DNA from: Nitrospirota bacterium
GTDB lineage: Bacteria > Nitrospirota > UBA9217
Assembly (NCBI GenBank): GCA_963740085.1
Contig: CAVUCU010000007.1
Location: 122,835 to 186,834 of the forward strand
Direction of reading: 5' to 3'
DNA: 64,000 bases
The notes under the pieces are model-generated. The model made no database searches. It had not been told where the DNA came from and saw only the letters and a list, made by a program, of their open reading frames with translations. This document shows, piece after piece, positions 1,283 through 14,811 of the stretch (the stretch's first letter is position 1; every line of letters starts with the position of its first letter). Made by a program: the position numbers and the translations under genes.

Positions 1283-1633
1283 ATGAAAAAGATACTGGTT
1301 ATCGACGACGAGGAAAATATCCGGGAACTTTATAAAGAGGAGTTCATGGAGATGGGCTACGAAGTAATGACGGCTCACGACGGGGTTCAGGCGCTTGCGG
1401 CTATGGACACTACAAAGTTCGATCTGGCCACTCTGGACATGCGTATGGAAGAAATGGACGGCATAGAAACCCTTCGGAAGATGAAAGAGAAGGACAGCTC
1501 GCTTCCCGTCATTATCTGCACCGCTTACGAGGAATATAAGCACGACTTCGGAAGCTGGTGTTCCGATGCCTACGTAGTCAAGTCCTCAGACCTGTCTCTG
1601 CTCCGGGACACGGTGAAAAAGATCCTCGGATGA
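1283..1633 (+). CDS. single-domain response regulator (CheY-like receiver)
   Basis: 'MKKILVIDDEENIREL...LDMRMEEMDGIETLRKMK' carries the receiver acidic pocket and the phospho-acceptor Asp context. There is no output domain. The ORF-track start at 1226 is an N-terminal over-extension. Confidence 0.85.
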   Translation: MKKILVIDDEENIRELYKEEFMEMGYEVMTAHDGVQALAAMDTTKFDLATLDMRMEEMDGIETLRKMKEKDSSLPVIICTAYEEYKHDFGSWCSDAYVVKSSDLSLLRDTVKKILG

Positions 1634-3928: not shown

Positions 3929-4357
3929 TTAAACAAACGAGACCATGCGGGTAGCCGCGGAGAAAACAAATACTCGATCCATATTGGATCCCGGATCGGC
4001 GGGAAAAACAAAGAATCCCGGCCGGCCCGGCTGATAGCCCTGCGTCGTTCCGACCAATTCCTCCCCGTCCTTGAATACCACCTTGATCTTTTTCCCCACA
4101 GCCGGCTTGACCGTGTCGAATGTTCTTTTCTCCTGGTATTGACTATCCCCGTCAAAGTCCTTCACAAAAAATACAGCCTTCAATACGTTGACGTAAACAT
4201 CAAGCGGCTTGGAACCGGCCGGGGCGTCATACGGCAGGAGATGGAAAATGTCCTTGTTGGGCATGAAATTGCTCGTATAACCCTTTGATATGCGGCCGTC
4301 CTGATAACGAACGACGATCTTATTTTGTATCATAACGATCCTTTCTTCAGCTTCCAA
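3929..4357 (-). CDS. uncharacterised conserved protein (142 aa), family A paralog 1
   Basis: It shares motifs with the 160-aa ORF at 30651-31133: 'VVRYQDGRISKGYTSNF', 'LKAVFFVKDFDGDS', 'GFFVFPADPGSNMDRVFVF'. It lies 36 nt downstream of the SRAP gene on the same strand. Confidence 0.6.
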   Translation of the reverse strand: MEAEERIVMIQNKIVVRYQDGRISKGYTSNFMPNKDIFHLLPYDAPAGSKPLDVYVNVLKAVFFVKDFDGDSQYQEKRTFDTVKPAVGKKIKVVFKDGEELVGTTQGYQPGRPGFFVFPADPGSNMDRVFVFSAATRMVSFV

Positions 4358-4393: not shown

Positions 4394-5062
4394 CTATCCG
4401 TCCAACGGTTCTATGCTTTCCGGCGAATCGTATTTAAAAGAGTTCACCTTTGGAGTAACAGGGAATAATTCCATCTCCTCTGATGGGTAAGGATTCAATA
4501 GCCCGGGAAGAACTGAACTATCCTGAACCCTGGGATCCAGCCATAGGTCATATTTGTCCGCCGGGGCAATGACCGGCATCCGCTCGTGAATGGGCATGAC
4601 CAACTGGTTCGCGCCGGTCGTTATGATCGTACTCATCGTGAGCAGTTCACCGTCCGGGGACCCCCAGGCGTTATACAGTCCGGCAAAGCCAAATGGCTTG
4701 TGTGACTTGAGCCTGACATAGAAAGGCTTCCTTGTCGTTCCTTCCTTTCGCCATTCGTAGAATCCATCAGCCACCACAAGACACCGCTGTTTCTCGAAGG
4801 CCGATTTGAACGCCTTGCTGCTTGCAACGGTCTCCGCACGAGCATTGATCATCCCGTAGCTGGCATCAAGGTCCTGGGACCAGGACGGCACAAAACCCCA
4901 TCGGGACTTGATAAGCCTCCGTTTACCATCGTTGACGACGATCAGAATGTCCTGACTGGGCGCGATGTTATAGTGGGGCGGATATTCAAGATCCCGGTCA
5001 GCGATCCCGAATATCTCCGCGATTACCTCAATGGCGCTATGTATCTCAAATCGTCCGCACAT
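4394..5062 (-). CDS. yedK: SOS response-associated peptidase (SRAP/YedK/HMCES family)
   Basis: The hallmark N-terminus 'MCGRF' (catalytic Cys2) is present along with conserved 'YNIAPSQ' and 'ADGFYEW' motifs. An extended -10 TGCTATACT and an AGGTGA RBS are visible upstream on the minus strand. Confidence 0.9.
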   Translation of the reverse strand: MCGRFEIHSAIEVIAEIFGIADRDLEYPPHYNIAPSQDILIVVNDGKRRLIKSRWGFVPSWSQDLDASYGMINARAETVASSKAFKSAFEKQRCLVVADGFYEWRKEGTTRKPFYVRLKSHKPFGFAGLYNAWGSPDGELLTMSTIITTGANQLVMPIHERMPVIAPADKYDLWLDPRVQDSSVLPGLLNPYPSEEMELFPVTPKVNSFKYDSPESIEPLDG

Positions 5063-5129
5063 AACCGGTCACCTAACCTGTTGTAAGTATAGCACGTTGC
5101 TGCAACCGCGCCCGGGATCCAGAAAACCC

Positions 5130-5159
5130 TTGACAGGTGAACGTTCGTTCACTTATACT
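5130..5159 (+). promoter_or_regulatory. lexA promoter: -35 TTGACA (5130-5135), -10 TATACT (5154-5159), LexA dyad GTGAACGTTCGTTCAC (5137-5152; Cheo-type GAAC-N4-GTTC at 5139-5150)
   Basis: The palindrome lies in the spacer of a sigma-70-like promoter. The ATG at 5166 sits 7 nt after the -10 element, so the lexA mRNA is probably leaderless. Confidence 0.55.
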
Positions 5160-5165
5160 ATCTTC

Positions 5166-5762
5166 ATGCCATCACCGATCGCTAAGGAAGAAAAGCACCG
5201 CTCCCGCATCCGGGACATTGCCCGTTTCCAGCAGAAAAACGGCAGGATGCCCAGTTTTTCAGAGCTCGGCGAGATAACCGGTCTGCGGTCAAAGAACGCG
5301 GTATTCAAGCTTGTAGGCAAGCTGGAAAAGCTCAAGGTCGTGGCGCGGGACAAGAAGGGCAGGCTTATTCCCGGTTCGATCGCCTGCCCTGTCAAGGTGC
5401 TGGGAACGGTCGAGGCAGGCTTCCCCTCTCCCGCGGAAGAAGAGCTGGTTGATACCCTTTCCCTTGATGATTTCCTGATCCAGAACCGGGAGGCAACCTT
5501 TTTGCTCAAGGTATCCGGCGATTCCATGTCCGGCGCGGGGATACTTGCGGGTGATATGGTCATCGTGGATAAGGGCCGGACGCCAAAGAGCGGCGATATT
5601 GTGATCGCCCAGGTGGACGGTGAGTGGACCATGAAGTACTTACGGAAGCGTGGTGACAACGTGACCCTCGTAGCCGCAAACCCCAAATACCAGCCCATCA
5701 AACCGAAGCGTGAACTCAAGATCTCGGGGGTCGTGACAGCCGTGGTGAGAAAATATAAATAG
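5166..5762 (+). CDS. lexA: LexA repressor (wHTH + S24 peptidase domain)
   Basis: The C-terminal 'VSGDSMSGAGILAGDMVIVD...KYLRKRGDNVTLVAANP' has the Ser/Lys dyad context. The N-terminal 'GRMPSFSELGEITGLRS' matches the DNA-binding region. The ORF-track start at 5031 is an over-extension. Confidence 0.85.
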   Translation: MPSPIAKEEKHRSRIRDIARFQQKNGRMPSFSELGEITGLRSKNAVFKLVGKLEKLKVVARDKKGRLIPGSIACPVKVLGTVEAGFPSPAEEELVDTLSLDDFLIQNREATFLLKVSGDSMSGAGILAGDMVIVDKGRTPKSGDIVIAQVDGEWTMKYLRKRGDNVTLVAANPKYQPIKPKRELKISGVVTAVVRKYK

Positions 5763-5783
5763 GGCAAGGCAAAAATGAATTAG

Positions 5784-6001
5784 TCTCACACGAAGCCACA
5801 AAGCCACGAAGAAAGGCGGAACTCGCAAATGTCCATACAACACAAGGATGGAATGACCGAGATGAATTTCGGTGAAGGTATGATGAAAGATGGCATATCC
5901 CGTATTCTGAACGGACAGGTAACATAGTACGAAAAATCATATCTCACACGAAGCTACAAAGAAAAAAGCTCCCCTTCGTGGCTTTGTGCCTTTGTGTGAG
6001 A
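5784..6001. repeat. MITE-like element with ~30-bp terminal inverted repeats (TCTCACACGAAGCCACAAAGCCACGAAG ... CTTCGTGGCTTTGTGCCTTTGTGTGAGA)
   Basis: The ends are reverse complements of each other. The internal 5942-5967 stretch repeats the left end. The motifs are related to the 12014/23135/53224 repeat family. Confidence 0.5.
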
Positions 6002-6190
6002 ACGATCTGTTTTTTACGAGGATCAAATTCCGTCTTGCGGAAAATTATGAACGATGTTAAGCTGAATGCGGATCGAAGCCGATGACATGCCGATACGGCT
6101 GCAGGCTAAAGCAGCACCTCTGGGAAAGCGCATACAGAGAGATGCTTCTTGTCCGAATAAATAAGTTAGGCTCTACTAAGGAGGAAATGA

Positions 6191-7270
6191 GTGGGCGTTG
6201 AGGAGAAAAACAGGAACGAAATCCTTTCCCGGGTAGTTGCCGCTCTCTTTGTGAAATCGAAGGGAGGGGAAGAGCTGTCATCCAATATCCATCGTCTCCG
6301 CGAGGAAATAAAGAAAGTGATCGAAGGTGAGGATACGATATTCGGAAAATTCCGTGGACTCGTGGAATCGTTCCGGGACATCATTCCTGAGGAGAAACAG
6401 CGTTATCATGCCGCTATCCAGGCATTGTCGACAACTTCGAAGCTAAGCCAGCAAGAGATCGTTAAGGCCGTCAACAATCAGTTCGAGGAGCTTAAAATAC
6501 TCGAGAAGGGTTTAATGCCTGCCCTCCCCGGTTGGCGCGACGAGCTTAAGGTCATGGAAACCAGATCGCGGGAGATGCGGGACGAGATATCGAAACTGCG
6601 TGAAAAAATAGGGCAGCTTGAGAGCGAAGAAAAAGGGATACTCACTGGCATGGCGGCACGGGAAAAGGAAATGGCGCTCGTCGAGAAGGCAGTGACCGAA
6701 CTTTTCACGGATTTGGGAGCGGAGATAACCTCTATCAAAAAAAAGGTTGAGGAATTTACTGCTGAAAGTGCGGCCTCTCAGCCAATCCCGGCCAAGGATT
6801 CTATGAAAAGTGATATTCCCCGCGAGGAAAAGGGAAGCGGCGAGCGGAAAAGCGAGATCCCCGAGTCTCCAGCACCGCAGGGTGCGGAATGGCAGAAAAA
6901 ATGCCCTATGTGCGGGGGGCGAATGGACTTCTACAGTCAGGAGGAAATGTGGCAGTGTTATTCCTGCGCATACGAAGAACTAAAAAAGGATGAAGCTCCG
7001 GGTGAAAGCGAAGAGAAAAGTGAGCCTGCGAACGCACCTCAACCCGCTCCGGCTTCGAAGCCGGGTTCCGGTCCATCTCCGCGCCGTGCCGTCCATATGG
7101 GATCCCTGTCTTCCGACGAAAACCAGGAACCAAGAGAGGAATCATCACTGTCCATTAACCAGCCATCGTCCAAAAAAAAGACCTGTCCGGTCTGCCGTAA
7201 AAAGATGGATTGGCACCAGAAGGAGAAGGCCTGGCGGTGCCCCTTCTGCGACTACGAGAGAAGTATCTAA
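6191..7270 (+). CDS. hypothetical coiled-coil protein with two C-terminal zinc ribbons (GTG start)
   Basis: AAGGAGG RBS sits 7 nt before the GTG start. The N-terminal approximately 200 aa is heptad-rich and charged. Zinc ribbons are 'CPMCGGRMD...CYSCAYEE' and 'CPVCRKKMD...CPFCDYE', separated by a Pro/Ser/Glu-rich linker. Confidence 0.6.
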   Translation: MGVEEKNRNEILSRVVAALFVKSKGGEELSSNIHRLREEIKKVIEGEDTIFGKFRGLVESFRDIIPEEKQRYHAAIQALSTTSKLSQQEIVKAVNNQFEELKILEKGLMPALPGWRDELKVMETRSREMRDEISKLREKIGQLESEEKGILTGMAAREKEMALVEKAVTELFTDLGAEITSIKKKVEEFTAESAASQPIPAKDSMKSDIPREEKGSGERKSEIPESPAPQGAEWQKKCPMCGGRMDFYSQEEMWQCYSCAYEELKKDEAPGESEEKSEPANAPQPAPASKPGSGPSPRRAVHMGSLSSDENQEPREESSLSINQPSSKKKTCPVCRKKMDWHQKEKAWRCPFCDYERSI

Positions 7271-7281
7271 GAGGGCGCATC

Positions 7282-8103
7282 ATGTCTGAAATCTTCGGTT
7301 TCGATGCATTCTCCCCTAAAGAAATCGCTGCGCGGGTCCAAACAATCGGCGTGGTCAAGGCTCGCCTGCCGCTAATTCCCATGCTGATGCTGAGTGTGCT
7401 GGCCGGAGCCTTTATCGCCCTGGGTGCGCTCTACTTTGTGATTGTCAAATCTGACCCCTCCTTGGGCTTTGCCGCCAAACAGGTGCTCGGCGGCGTGACC
7501 TTCTCTTTGGGGTTGATTCTCGTGGTCGTCGCAGGTGCGGAGTTATTCACGGGAAATAATCTGCTGGCGATGGCCTGGGCTGATGGAAAGATTTCCACCC
7601 TCGAGCTGCTGCAGAACTGGGCAATTGTTTGCGTCGGCAATTTTATTGGCGCAGCCGGACTTGCGCTCTTGGTTTTTCTCTCCCATCACCCTGAAATGAA
7701 CAATGGCGAAATTGCACAAGAGTATCTCAGGATTGCCTCAGCCAAGGTCGCCATGCCGTTCTGGACGGCCTTCTTTAAGGGCATCCTCTGTAATGTCCTG
7801 GTGTGCATAGCGGTATGGATGGCGCTTGCCGGACGAAGCGTTATCGATAAGGCTGTGGCAATTATATTTCCCGTGTCTGCTTTCGTTGCGGCAGGCTTCG
7901 AACATAGCGTCGCCAATATGTTCTTTATCCCGCTCGCGATGCTGCTGCAGAACTTCGACAACATAGGAGTGAACTCCAATACCATTACCTGGGTTGGTTT
8001 CTTCGGAAATCTGGTGCCGGTAATACTGGGTAATATTGTCGGCGGCAGCGTTCTGGTTGGATTAGTGTACCACCTCATCTACCGGCAAAAGCGGCATACA
8101 TAA
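7282..8103 (+). CDS. formate/nitrite transporter family protein (FocA/NirC-like)
   Basis: FNT signature regions 'LAGAFIALG', 'VVVAGAELFTGNNL' and 'GNFIGAAGLALLV' are present. Six TM helices are predicted by eye. Confidence 0.85.
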   Translation: MSEIFGFDAFSPKEIAARVQTIGVVKARLPLIPMLMLSVLAGAFIALGALYFVIVKSDPSLGFAAKQVLGGVTFSLGLILVVVAGAELFTGNNLLAMAWADGKISTLELLQNWAIVCVGNFIGAAGLALLVFLSHHPEMNNGEIAQEYLRIASAKVAMPFWTAFFKGILCNVLVCIAVWMALAGRSVIDKAVAIIFPVSAFVAAGFEHSVANMFFIPLAMLLQNFDNIGVNSNTITWVGFFGNLVPVILGNIVGGSVLVGLVYHLIYRQKRHT

Positions 8104-8244: not shown

Positions 8245-8901
8245 ATGATGAAAAATAAAGCGGTCATCTTTGATCTTGACGGTACACTGCTCGATACGCT
8301 TGAAGATATCGCATATGCGGCCAATCGGGTTCTGGCTTCGAGGGGTTTGCCTATCCGTCCGCTGGATGTCCACAGGGCCGCAATCGGAAACGGGGCCCGC
8401 CAGTTGATGGAACGTGTGTTGCCGGAAGGCAACCGCGATCCGAAGACGATCGAGGAATGTTTCGCGGCTTTCCGTAAAGAGTACGGAGAACATTGGAACG
8501 TCAAAACCAAACCCTATCCCGGCGTACCGGAAACGCTGGATGCCTTACAAGCACGCGGATTGAAGATGGCCGTCTTGTCCAACAAGCCGGCTGATTTTAC
8601 GCGTAAATGTGTATATGGAATTCTATCGAAATGGAAGTTCGATCCTGTGGTTGGTGCAGAGCGTGGAATTCCGAGCAAACCAGATCCTGCCGGGGCCCTT
8701 GATATCGCCAAACGCCTTGGTATTTCGCCGGAAGAATTCGTCTATCTTGGTGACAGCGGAGTTGACATGAAAACGGCAACCGCGGCAGGCATGTTCGCCG
8801 TAGGAGCATTGTGGGGGTTTCGAAGTCGTGAAGAGTTACAACAAGAAGGGGCAAAGGTATTGCTGGAACGTCCTCAGGATATTATAAATTTGTTCGAGTG
8901 A
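8245..8901 (+). CDS. HAD-superfamily hydrolase, phosphoglycolate phosphatase-like (subfamily IA)
   Basis: Motif I 'FDLDGTLLDT', motif II 'VLSNKP' and motif IV 'YLGDSGVDMKTATAAG' are present. Confidence 0.8.
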   Translation: MMKNKAVIFDLDGTLLDTLEDIAYAANRVLASRGLPIRPLDVHRAAIGNGARQLMERVLPEGNRDPKTIEECFAAFRKEYGEHWNVKTKPYPGVPETLDALQARGLKMAVLSNKPADFTRKCVYGILSKWKFDPVVGAERGIPSKPDPAGALDIAKRLGISPEEFVYLGDSGVDMKTATAAGMFAVGALWGFRSREELQQEGAKVLLERPQDIINLFE

Positions 8902-8995: not shown

Positions 8996-10309
8996 ATGAC
9001 CGACCAATTCATATCCCTCTCCTCCTGGCCGCAGGCGATCATGCATATCGACGCCGACGCCTTTTTTGCCTCCTGTGAGCAGGCGATCCATCCGGAACTT
9101 AAAGGGAGGCCGGTGATCTGCGGCAAGGAGCGCGGCATTGTCGCCGCCGCGAGCTATGAGGCAAAGGCCCGGGGAGTCACTCGCGGGGTGCGGCTTTCGG
9201 ACGTGAAGAAGATCTGTCCCGATGCGGTCATTCTTCCGTCCGATTATGAGACCTACAGTCTCTTTTCCGTTCGCATGTTCGAGATCCTGCGGCGCTTTTC
9301 ACCTGATGTCGAGGAGTACTCTATTGATGAGGCCTTTGTCGATCTGACCGGCCTGAGACGAAGCTATCATGGCCCGTATGAAGTGATCGCCGAAAAAATG
9401 CGAACAGCGATCGAGACAGAGCTGGGGATCACCGTATCGGCCGGGGTAAGCCTTTCCAAGGTCCTGGCCAAGATCGGATCAAAGCACAATAAACCGAACG
9501 GTCTCACCATGATCCCGGGGAGAGATATTCATCGTTATCTGGAGAAACTGCCTGTCGAAAAGGTCTGGGGCATAGGGGCGAACACGGCGGCATTTCTGAG
9601 AAAGCACGGGATCACAACCGCTTTGCAGTTCACAAAAAAGGACGAGGGCTTCATAAAGAAGTTTCTGTCAAAACCCTACCAGGAGATCTGGCACGAGTTG
9701 AACGGCAGGAGCGTGTACCCGGTCACCACGGAGACAAAGAACAGCTACCAGTCGATAAGCAAGGCCAGGACCTTTACGCCGCCGTCCATGGATGAGGGTT
9801 TTGTATTTGCCCAGCTCTCCAAGAACCTGGAAAACGCATGCATCAAGGCAAGGAGGTACCGGCTGGCGGCCGCGCGGATCATTGTGTTCCTCAGGAAGCA
9901 GGATTTTACGAGCAGTGGAGTGGAAATTAAGCTGACCCGGCCTACCGCGTACCCGGTGGAACTGTTCGGGCTCCTGCGCCAGGGCTTTGAGCAGGTATTC
10001 GAATCCCGGGCCTTATACCGTCAGACAGGGGTCGTTCTTTCCGGCCTGGTCGCGGAGGGCGGGATCCAGTTCAGCCTTTTCGATGATACGACAAAGATAG
10101 AGAAGATGGCCAGGATCTACAGCGTCGTTGATGAGATCTCGGCGAAGTACGGAAAGCACACCATTCAGCACGCAGCGAGCCTGCCGACGAAGCTCCAGGC
10201 CCAGCACGAGGGAGAGCGGGGTGATGTCCCGGTAAGAAGAGCGGACCTGTTCAAAGGTGAGACCAGGCGACAGCGGCTGGGACTGCCCTTACTGCATATG
10301 AAGGTGTAA
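8996..10309 (+). CDS. Y-family DNA polymerase (DinB/UmuC-like translesion polymerase)
   Basis: 'MHIDADAFFASCEQ...GRPVICG...GIVAAASYEAKARGV...SIDEAFVDLTG' matches the Y-family catalytic core. GGAG RBS is 7 nt upstream of the ATG at 8996. Confidence 0.85.
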   Translation: MTDQFISLSSWPQAIMHIDADAFFASCEQAIHPELKGRPVICGKERGIVAAASYEAKARGVTRGVRLSDVKKICPDAVILPSDYETYSLFSVRMFEILRRFSPDVEEYSIDEAFVDLTGLRRSYHGPYEVIAEKMRTAIETELGITVSAGVSLSKVLAKIGSKHNKPNGLTMIPGRDIHRYLEKLPVEKVWGIGANTAAFLRKHGITTALQFTKKDEGFIKKFLSKPYQEIWHELNGRSVYPVTTETKNSYQSISKARTFTPPSMDEGFVFAQLSKNLENACIKARRYRLAAARIIVFLRKQDFTSSGVEIKLTRPTAYPVELFGLLRQGFEQVFESRALYRQTGVVLSGLVAEGGIQFSLFDDTTKIEKMARIYSVVDEISAKYGKHTIQHAASLPTKLQAQHEGERGDVPVRRADLFKGETRRQRLGLPLLHMKV

Positions 10310-13461: not shown

Positions 13462-14811
13462 ATGAAAAAGAAGGACCAGGAAAATTCACCATCGCGGCGG
13501 ACAACGAGCGACCAGACCAGGGCCCTGACCGGCCTGATCCGGAAGCCGCTTGTTCTGAAAAAAGCCCGCTTCGTGGTGAACCGTGGTCAGGACGAAGGCA
13601 AAGAGATGGTGCTCCAGGACCCCCGCGTCACGATCGGAACTCTCCGGGAGAACAATCTCGTGCTTACCGACACCACGGTTTCGCGCCAGCACGCCATCGT
13701 GGAGGAAACGGCGAAGGGCTACCTGCTCCGCGATCTCGACAGTACCAACGGCACCTTCCTCAACGGCGTGCGCGTCCGCGAGGGATATCTAGCAGCCGGC
13801 TCCCTCATCCGTCTGGGACAGACCGAGCTGACCTTCTCGCCCCTGGAAGAGCATCTCGAGAACCTTCGCAGCTCAGCGGACCGCTTCGGCGCGCTTATCG
13901 GTTCCTCTCCTCCCATGCAGGAGGTCTACGGTATTCTCGAGCGCATCGCACCGACGGACGTCACGGTCCTTCTGGAAGGCGAGACCGGCACCGGCAAGGA
14001 GCTTGCCGCCCGTGCAATCCACGCCAACAGCCGAAGGGCCGACAGCCCTTTTATCGTGTTCGACTGCGGCGCTGTAGCGCCGAACCTCATCGAGAGCGAA
14101 CTGTTCGGCCACGAGAAGGGCGCGTTCACCGATGCGGTCAAAGACCGTCAGGGTGCGTTCGAACTCGCGGACAAAGGCACCATCTTTCTTGACGAGATCG
14201 GGGAACTCTCCCTCGACCTCCAGCCGAAGCTCCTCCGCGCGCTGGACCAGCGCCAGACCAAGCGGGTGGGGGCCGACAAACCGGTCTCGATACACGTCCG
14301 GGTCATCTCCGCGACCAACAAGGACCTTGAAGAAGAAGTCAAGGCCGGACGATTCCGCGAGGACCTCTACTACCGCCTCTCGGTAGTGCGCGTAACCATG
14401 CCCCCGCTTCGGAAGAGGAAGGAAGACCTCGAAACCATCGCAGGGCTTTTGCTCGCGGAAATATCCGCGGAGATCAACAGGAAGATCACGGGCCTTTCTG
14501 CCGAGGCCTCTGCGGCGCTTGCCGCATATTCCTGGCCCGGCAATGTGCGCGAGCTCAAGAATGTCCTTGGGCGGGCCGCGGCGCTCTCCGACAGCGGGCG
14601 GATCGAGCCAAAGGACCTGTTCCTCTCCCAGGGGAAGAAGAACGTCACCCTCGAAGGTCTGAGCGGCAAAACACTGGAAGAGATCGAAAAGGCCGCTATC
14701 CATGCCACGCTCAAGTCAGTGAGCAACAATAAGACCGAGGCCGCCAGGGTGCTCGGCATCGCCTATTCAACGCTGTACGAAAAGATGAAGAAGTACAGGA
14801 TGAAGGAATAA
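13462..14811 (+). CDS. FHA-domain sigma-54-dependent transcriptional activator (FHA + AAA+ enhancer-binding domain + Fis-type HTH)
   Basis: FHA '[25 protein letters not shown]...[14 protein letters not shown]', Walker A 'GETGTGKE', 'GAFTDA' and a sigma-54 interaction module are present, plus a C-terminal HTH '[19 protein letters not shown]'. Confidence 0.85.

Follow-up and report, generated by a model that had tools for sequence, protein, structure and literature searches.

In Bacillus subtilis and other Gram-positive bacteria the Cheo box of LexA/DinR reads CGAAC-N4-GTTCG, and the mycobacterial SOS box is likewise flanked by C/G (TCGAAC-N4-GTTCGA). For lexA of Mycobacterium tuberculosis it was determined experimentally that the translation start coincides with the transcription start, i.e. 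that the transcript is leaderless (PMC2897130). In Geobacter sulfurreducens, lexA is co-transcribed with a Y-family polymerase gene as lexA-(imuB-C)-polY and is autoregulated, and Geobacter LexA is reported not to bind the recA promoter (PMC6511836). The Geobacter LexA motif is GGTT-N10-AACC (PMC8565304). UmuDAb of Acinetobacter is described as an S24 protein that resembles UmuD, carries a DNA-binding extension at its N-terminus, represses error-prone polymerase genes and cleaves itself (PMC7273328, PMC3978071). Finally, genes for SRAP proteins adjoin lexA and DinB-type polymerase genes in the gene neighbourhoods described by Aravind et al. 2013 (PMC3765255). Here we present the control region of a lexA gene in a 64,000-nt stretch of DNA from a Nitrospirota bacterium (contig CAVUCU010000007.1 of assembly GCA_963740085.1), the whole of which is called the window in the following. 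With a probability of about 0.82, the interval in front of this gene is an autoregulatory, leaderless lexA promoter of Nitrospirota (Thermodesulfovibrionia-type). It is a familiar kind of switch, in which a LexA operator of the Cheo class, whose T/A flank is specific to the clade, is combined with a conserved leaderless promoter.

The elements of the window were located by reading the letters from 4900 to 5320. Those belonging to lexA are the following:

5130-5135, plus strand: -35 hexamer TTGACA of lexA (sequence; consensus promoter scan)
5137-5152, no strand: predicted LexA operator GTGAACGTTCGTTCAC, 16 bp, with the core GAAC-N4-GTTC at 5139-5150 (sequence, matrix)
5154-5159, plus strand: -10 hexamer TATACT of lexA (sequence; consensus promoter scan)
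5166-5168, plus strand: ATG of lexA, predicted to be the transcription start (conserved 6-nt gap after the -10)
5166-5762, plus strand: lexA coding sequence, 198 amino acids, with an N-terminal winged helix-turn-helix, Ala84-Gly85, Ser120 and Lys157 (TIGR00498, PF00717)

A first-pass annotation, made from the letters alone, had placed TTGACA, the GAAC-N4-GTTC dyad, TATACT, the 18-nt spacer and the ATG at just these positions, where all of them were found again. The 18 nt separate the two hexamers, and the promoter reaches 11/12 in the consensus promoter scan. It had further been noted that the ATG lies 7 nt after the -10, which is correct in that six bases intervene and the A is the 7th base past the hexamer. 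If the -10 is taken as -12 to -7, the A of the ATG therefore falls at the canonical +1, and the operator extends from about -29 to about -14 as counted from this predicted start. The core GAAC-N4-GTTC has one match in the 64 kb. This count is not significant alone, since shuffled sequences yield 1.19 matches per window; the chance of the sole match landing in the ~100-bp region upstream of lexA is ~0.002 by arithmetic from the shuffle count. An operator weight matrix (24 bits) was built from 79 other loci with the window site left out. By this matrix the window operator scores 27.6 bits and is the sole site in the window with at least 8 bits.

In the proposed mechanism, a LexA dimer would bind the 16-bp palindrome GTGAAC-N4-GTTCAC in the spacer between the consensus -35 and the near-consensus -10 and would thereby block RNA polymerase. 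With the whole spacer taken up by the box, the enzyme should be kept off by a bound dimer, as is classical for the autoregulation of LexA. Once DNA is damaged, the repressor would be released through RecA-stimulated self-cleavage at Ala84-Gly85, and RNA polymerase would initiate at the A of the lexA ATG, giving an mRNA with neither a 5′ leader nor a Shine-Dalgarno sequence, which would be translated from its 5′-terminal AUG. The ancestral promoter would also have driven the Y-family polymerase gene immediately downstream, which in the window was moved 3.2 kb away by inserted DNA.

The comparison set comprises 80 related loci, designated by L numbers, on one-genome-per-species contigs; their LexA proteins are 61-94% identical to that of the window. 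Most of them stem from metagenome-assembled genomes (MAGs) of Nitrospirota/Thermodesulfovibrionia. By its homologues and by these loci the window is likewise assigned to this group, with relatives similar to Candidatus Sulfobium; L064 and L068, which are labelled Thermodesulfovibrio, share the promoter. The dyad is situated inside the promoter spacer in 80/80 of these loci, and TTGACA stands at the equivalent place in 77/80. The spacer measures 17 nt in 45 loci and 18 nt in 35, and the -10 reads TATAAT in 59 and TATACT in 11 (70 together), while no sequence conservation among the 80 loci was seen upstream of the -35. Within the operator, A4, A5, C6, G11 and T12 are invariant in the 79 loci of the matrix, T13 is kept in 77 and C14 in 78. 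According to the first-pass annotation, a different motif in orthologous lexA promoters would have refuted the finding; the 80 genomes defined the same GTGAAC-N4-GTTCAC, with the window site among its top-scoring instances.

Operator positions 2 and 15 are occupied by T/A in 65 of the 80 loci, by C/G in 8 and by A/T in 2, and are complementary in 75/80. This base pair goes together with the third helix of the LexA protein encoded downstream:

helix-3 SKN: operator positions 2/15 are T/A (65 sequences)
helix-3 SKS or SKD: operator positions 2/15 are C/G (8 sequences)
helix-3 SKG: operator positions 2/15 are A/T (2 sequences)

Where the protein does not have the Asn (13/13), one half-site or both depart from T/A, and among those with the Asn a deviation from T/A was found in 2/67, each time in one half-site only. 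A neighbour-joining tree distributes the changes of helix and operator over at least five distinct branches (L074/L080/L075; L017/L024/L037/L042; L043/L047/L055; L066; L077), with L071 as a half-site case. Asn44 of the window LexA is aligned with Asn41 of E. coli LexA by BLASTP. The latter residue, together with Ser39, Ala42, Glu44 and Glu45, belongs to the DNA-contacting residues of helix III (PMC3091678) and touches operator position 15 via a bridging water molecule (PMC5999292). More distant LexA homologues (45-49% identity), encoded beside GTGAAC..GTTCAC boxes on low-GC metagenome contigs, have SKNAV in all 11 cases. The LexA proteins of B. subtilis and M. tuberculosis, which recognise CGAAC..GTTCG and have a Ser at the helix-3 position, fit the same rule.

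Since base pair 2/15 co-varies with a helix-3 residue, the LexA encoded downstream is tied to the dyad. The location of the dyad upstream of the predicted start and the joint change of its arms argue for a dimeric protein and not for an RNA hairpin, and a scan of the window against Rfam gave no RNA family match. This co-variation of one residue and one base pair makes a clean natural specificity series. With regard to classification, the dyad had initially been called Cheo-type. The GAAC/GTTC half-sites and their 4-bp spacing bear this out, but the flank does not, being T/A in the window and in 65/80 relatives and not C/G. CGAAC..GTTCG itself does occur in 8 relatives, and there helix 3 carries a Ser or an Asp. 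The T/A-flanked operator is a clade-specific variant of the Cheo class.

Some individual loci of the set deserve mention. At L063 (5149-6510), lexA is broken after about codon 30 by a ~720-bp insertion which encodes an IS200-like TnpA on the opposite strand; promoter, box and first codons are intact. At L047 (1820-1862), the -35 plus half a box (TTGACAGCGAACGC TTGACAGCGAACGATCGTTCGC) is partly tandem-duplicated upstream of lexA. Two copies of the module are present in some genomes, as with L041 and L080 on the same contig (CAVTNL010000001.1) and with L056 and L059 in the same MAG. L041 has a T/A operator, SKN and a polymerase gene; L080 has a C/G operator and SKS and is not accompanied by a polymerase gene. 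The differing operator types of this pair suggest insulated paralogues.

A leaderless lexA mRNA had been proposed in the first-pass annotation, and as a prediction from sequence it stands up well in the comparison. The distance from the -10 to the start codon is 6 nt in 63 of the 80 loci and 5-7 nt in 76, although the six bases in between vary (ATCTTC, GAAACC, CTGATT and others). Because these bases vary freely, selection appears to act on the spacing between -10 and ATG and not on a ribosome-binding sequence. The start codon is ATG in 78/80 loci and GTG in two. The lexA ATG of the window has no Shine-Dalgarno sequence, as merely six variable bases precede it; Shine-Dalgarno-like sequences are present in the window at the SRAP gene (AGGTGA) and at polY (GGAG). 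Starts without a leader do not look like the rule in the clade: a -10 followed at 5-7 nt by the ATG, taken as a strict signature, was detected at ~3% of the first ATGs of genes other than lexA, compared to 0.7% of internal ATGs. This comparison of first with internal ATGs replaced a Shine-Dalgarno census of the open reading frames (ORFs) of the window, which was too noisy. A second leaderless candidate of the window is the gene at 13462-14811 (plus strand) for a sigma-54 activator (FHA + AAA+ + HTH_8), whose ATG stands 6 nt after an extended -10, TGaTACAAT.

The protein encoded at 5166-5762 passes the NCBIfam equivalog model for LexA, TIGR00498, with 119.1 bits at residues 18-197 (cut-off 110.95) and matches PF00717 with 3.4e-30; a close homologue is named LexA in its source annotation. 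It can be aligned with E. coli LexA over the full length by BLASTP, with RSKNAVFK opposite RSPNAAEE and with Ala84-Gly85, Ser120 and Lys157 opposite Ala84-Gly85, Ser119 and Lys156. The scissile Ala-Gly, the Ser and the Lys are invariant in 23 homologues. An AlphaFold model of low confidence (overall pLDDT, the predicted local distance difference test score, 49) was used solely for the topology of the N-terminal domain, in which residues 11-70 (pLDDT 72-85) are arranged as helix-helix-helix-strand-strand, with helix 3 at 43-55. By sequence scores the cleavage domain is nearer to UmuD than to LexA. The UmuD model NF007621 matches residues 83-195 with 126.2 bits (cut-off 110), the best match in the PDB is UmuD with 80 bits, compared to 59-62 bits for LexA C-terminal domains, and the GFPSPA after the Ala-Gly site matches UmuD. 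However, the protein has an N-terminal domain of ~80 residues that aligns with the LexA helix-turn-helix, in place of the short arm of UmuD. Since a domain of DNA-binding type is present, we do not file the protein as UmuD.

Downstream of lexA, the window contains the following features:

5771-6014, no strand: element resembling a miniature inverted-repeat transposable element (MITE) or repetitive extragenic palindrome (REP), directly after the lexA stop codon, with 41-nt inverted arms (80% complementary), 162 nt between them and a T run (fold z = -5.8)
6191-7270, plus strand: gene for a coiled-coil/zinc-ribbon protein, inside the insertion
7282-8103, plus strand: gene for a formate/nitrite transporter, inside the insertion
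8245-8901, plus strand: gene for a HAD phosphatase, inside the insertion
8996-10309, plus strand: gene for a Y-family DNA polymerase, polY (PF00817, PF11799, PF11798)

In 74/80 relatives a polymerase gene with the orientation of lexA is found downstream of it. The gap between the two genes is at most 60 nt in 42/74 and at most 300 nt in 61/74, and this frequent short gap on one strand points to an ancestral lexA-polY operon. In the window the two genes are 3.2 kb apart, with all intervening genes on the same strand; insertions of more than 1 kb at this place were found in eight relatives. It had been remarked in the first-pass annotation that no similar dyad precedes the polymerase gene at 8996, and neither the matrix nor a reading of the upstream sequence gave a comparable site there. 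That the polymerase gene has no box of its own is explained by its ancestral co-transcription with lexA. The MITE-like element may act as terminator of lexA transcription, and it may also mark one end of the DNA that was inserted between lexA and polY. Related 20-mers occur at 1053-1072 and 5942-5961. L170, a metagenome contig, encodes a polymerase with 59% identity to that of the window, and this gene has a free-standing GTGAACGATCGTTCAC box of its own, so that the box can apparently act away from lexA.

Upstream of lexA, a gene of the SRAP family is transcribed divergently:

5086-5094, minus strand: extended -10 TGCTATACT of the SRAP promoter, without a recognisable -35 (sequence)
5069-5074, minus strand: Shine-Dalgarno-like AGGTGA, 6 nt before the ATG (5062) of the SRAP gene (sequence)
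4394-5062, minus strand: SRAP/YedK-type gene, 222 amino acids, starting with MCGRF (PF02586)

PF02586 matches residues 1-208 of its product with 1.4e-70, and the catalytic Cys is at position 2. The first-pass annotation had given this gene an extended -10 of its own, and TGCTATACT is indeed found there on the minus strand; in the closest relatives (L001, L002, L003 and L006) it is kept as TGCTATACT or TGCTATAAT. The SRAP gene is followed on the same strand, after a gap of 36 nt, by a DUF6982 gene (3929-4357, minus strand). The pair is also present in L001 and L002 and may form an operon. In L043, L047 and L055 a leaderless start is suggested for the SRAP gene as well (TGgTATTAT or TGgTATAAT, 6 nt, ATG), its promoter standing back-to-back with the lexA -35 at a distance of no more than ~10 bp.

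Several observations weigh against an autoregulatory, leaderless lexA promoter. L013 (5858-6000) alone has a long leader of 102 nt, which is GC-rich and contains a Shine-Dalgarno sequence; here a GC-rich palindromic insert stands between the conserved promoter with its box and the lexA ATG. In three loci 9-10 nt lie between -10 and start, and in two the start is GTG. From these cases together it follows that leaderless expression is not obligatory. The N-terminal domain is divergent, and the Pfam model of the LexA DNA-binding domain, PF01726, matches weakly (14.2 bits, cut-off 23.7). No second box was found with at least 8 bits in the window or with at least 11 bits in 836 kb of flanking DNA, and for this clade the 5′ end, the binding and the cleavage are inferred from sequence. 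It is very improbable, though, that lexA is transcribed with a normal leader from another upstream promoter, or starts at another codon, and that the -35 and -10 are incidental. The lexA ORF, taken mechanically, does run upstream to an in-frame ATG at 5031, and database gene calls are sometimes 208-232 amino acids long. But such in-frame upstream starts are not conserved and are missing from L001 and L002, and an extension to 5031 would overlap the SRAP start and promoter, whereas the residues following the ATG at 5166 align with helix 1 of LexA and both hexamers are kept with their spacing across the 80 genomes. Even less credible is that the dyad is bound by another factor or is a chance palindrome. 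Its single occurrence in 64 kb equals the chance expectation, but the presence of the dyad in 80/80 orthologous promoters, where its two arms vary together and along with the recognition helix encoded by the gene behind it, speaks strongly against both.

The remaining alternatives leave the lexA promoter in place and concern what else the repressor does. The LexA box of the lexA promoter could also repress the divergent SRAP gene, which would make the interval a bidirectional SOS control region. The SRAP gene is head-to-head with lexA in 11/80 relatives, with 47-77 bp from its ATG to the box, in L043 and L055 its promoter must lie within ~10 bp of the lexA -35, and SRAP-DinB-LexA neighbourhoods are a recognised association (PMC3765255). 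We regard this as rather unlikely for the window, because the box is ~58-73 bp upstream of the predicted SRAP start, past its -10 and any -35, 69/80 relatives have no SRAP gene at this position and the scans of the window gave no second box nearer to it. The caution of the first-pass annotation about LexA control of SRAP was thus justified, as the box is outside the SRAP core promoter. A larger share of doubt, still somewhat short of even, is due to the view that, instead of repressing SOS genes globally, the protein acts as a LexA/UmuD hybrid specific to its cassette and controls only itself and the co-transcribed Y-family polymerase. Operator and leaderless promoter would be unchanged by this, and the regulon would, just as tentatively, be essentially one operon, as in lexA-polY of Geobacter or with UmuDAb of Acinetobacter. 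The cleavage domain fits this view (126 bits with NF007621; 80 bits with UmuD in the PDB compared to 59-62 bits with LexA C-terminal domains; the GFPSPA motif past the Ala-Gly site as in UmuD), as do the polymerase gene directly following lexA in most relatives, the lack of any other box in the 64 kb and 836 kb, and the two module copies with different operator types in some genomes (L041, L080). On the other side, the LexA equivalog model is passed and a close homologue is annotated as LexA, the searched DNA covers a small, biased part of each genome, and the polymerase of L170 with its own free-standing box indicates that a second promoter can be controlled by the repressor in trans. In addition, a second canonical lexA is not shown in these genomes. 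Carrying the idea further, lexA-polY could be a minimal self-contained mutagenesis cassette, in which one protein takes the roles of LexA and UmuD. Its N-terminal domain would repress the 37-bp leaderless promoter, the UmuD′-like C-terminal dimer left after RecA-triggered cleavage would serve as accessory subunit of the polymerase, and one helix-3 residue would set the operator specificity, the whole having spread through Thermodesulfovibrionia and neighbouring lineages. This is a speculative and, in our view, improbable extension; if true, operator specificity set by a single residue would keep paralogous cassettes of the same genome from interfering with each other.

Under the preferred reading, an autoregulated lexA promoter, the size of the regulon is a separate matter. 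The first-pass annotation had suggested a search for GAAC-N4-GTTC to define it. In the window the core matches at lexA alone, and the matrix gave no further box, at thresholds of 8 bits for the window and 11 bits for the 836 kb of flanks. Additional exact GAAC-N4-GTTC cores in the flanks are at background level (13, compared to ~10 in shuffled sequence), none of them in a promoter-like context, and Pfam searches with the ten largest of the remaining ORFs in the window gave no classical SOS gene. The boxes in the window and flanks do not demonstrate a wider or global SOS role, and the cleavage domain appears UmuD-like. Copies of the C/G type that are not accompanied by a polymerase gene (L074, L080) were considered as a housekeeping LexA and rejected, as they are surrounded by hypothetical and helix-turn-helix-rich genes and not by repair genes.

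Boxes outside lexA promoters were also sought in metagenomes with the pattern YGTGAACNNTCGTTCAC, in a scan that cannot define the regulon of the clade. Its matches were dismissed as further operators, since they were mostly chance occurrences in coding DNA of unrelated organisms together with an unrelated repeat containing a long palindrome. The useful ones were L170 and a group of low-GC contigs with the box, a small ORF and lexA. This group consists of L082, L086, L094, L096, L104, L106, L123, L160, L166, L174, L184 and L187, possibly from the candidate phyla radiation (CPR)/Patescibacteria. In these 12 contigs the box is placed inside a TTGAC(T/A)...TATAAT-like promoter, followed by a conserved ORF of ~70 amino acids without a Pfam match, and then, in 11/12, by a lexA 45-49% identical to that of the window; L094 gave no lexA match. 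The longer palindrome AGCGAACGTGAAC-TCTC-GTTCACGTTCGCT has similar flanks in L097, L109, L111, L133, L150, L151, L158, L172, L173 and L194. It is a dispersed repeat in these ten contigs and contains the box sequence by coincidence or descent. In L083 (~1290-1306, minus strand), a box is found in a TTGACA...TATAAT promoter before an ORF whose N-terminus resembles a tyrosine recombinase/integrase; its first 60 residues gave no Pfam match.

A literature search for a LexA motif of Nitrospirae/Thermodesulfovibrio found no description, and the operator reported here is a first, well-supported predicted one for Nitrospirota/Thermodesulfovibrionia, a group with few cultured members. The leaderless expression of lexA documented experimentally in M. 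tuberculosis appears to be conserved across this whole clade, in which leaderless genes look rare. The matrix of 79 loci can be used to define the regulon in complete genomes. The co-variation of helix and operator and the ancestral lexA-polY operon are useful additions, and the understanding of the SOS response is unchanged by them.

Compared with known systems, the operator shares with the Cheo box the inverted GAAC/GTTC half-sites, their 4-bp spacing and the overlap of operator and promoter, and it differs in the outer positions, which are GT...AC here and not C...G. The closest precedent is lexA of M. tuberculosis, which has an SOS box of the GAAC-N4-GTTC type, is autoregulated and is leaderless (PMC2897130). 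In contrast to the mycobacterial gene, the operator has a T/A flank with Asn instead of Ser in helix 3, the box fills the spacer between -35 and -10, and the downstream partner is a Y-family polymerase. The arrangement in Geobacter is comparable in the co-transcription of lexA with a Y-family polymerase gene and in autoregulation, and it differs by the LexA motif and by the ImuB-C gene between lexA and polY, for which there is no room here, since the two genes abut in most relatives. The SRAP gene is divergent and not part of an operon as in the SRAP-DinB-LexA neighbourhoods, and it is at this position in 11/80 relatives. When compared by description with UmuDAb of Acinetobacter, the protein differs in that its N-terminal domain aligns with the winged helix-turn-helix of LexA, that it passes the LexA equivalog model and that its operator is unrelated.

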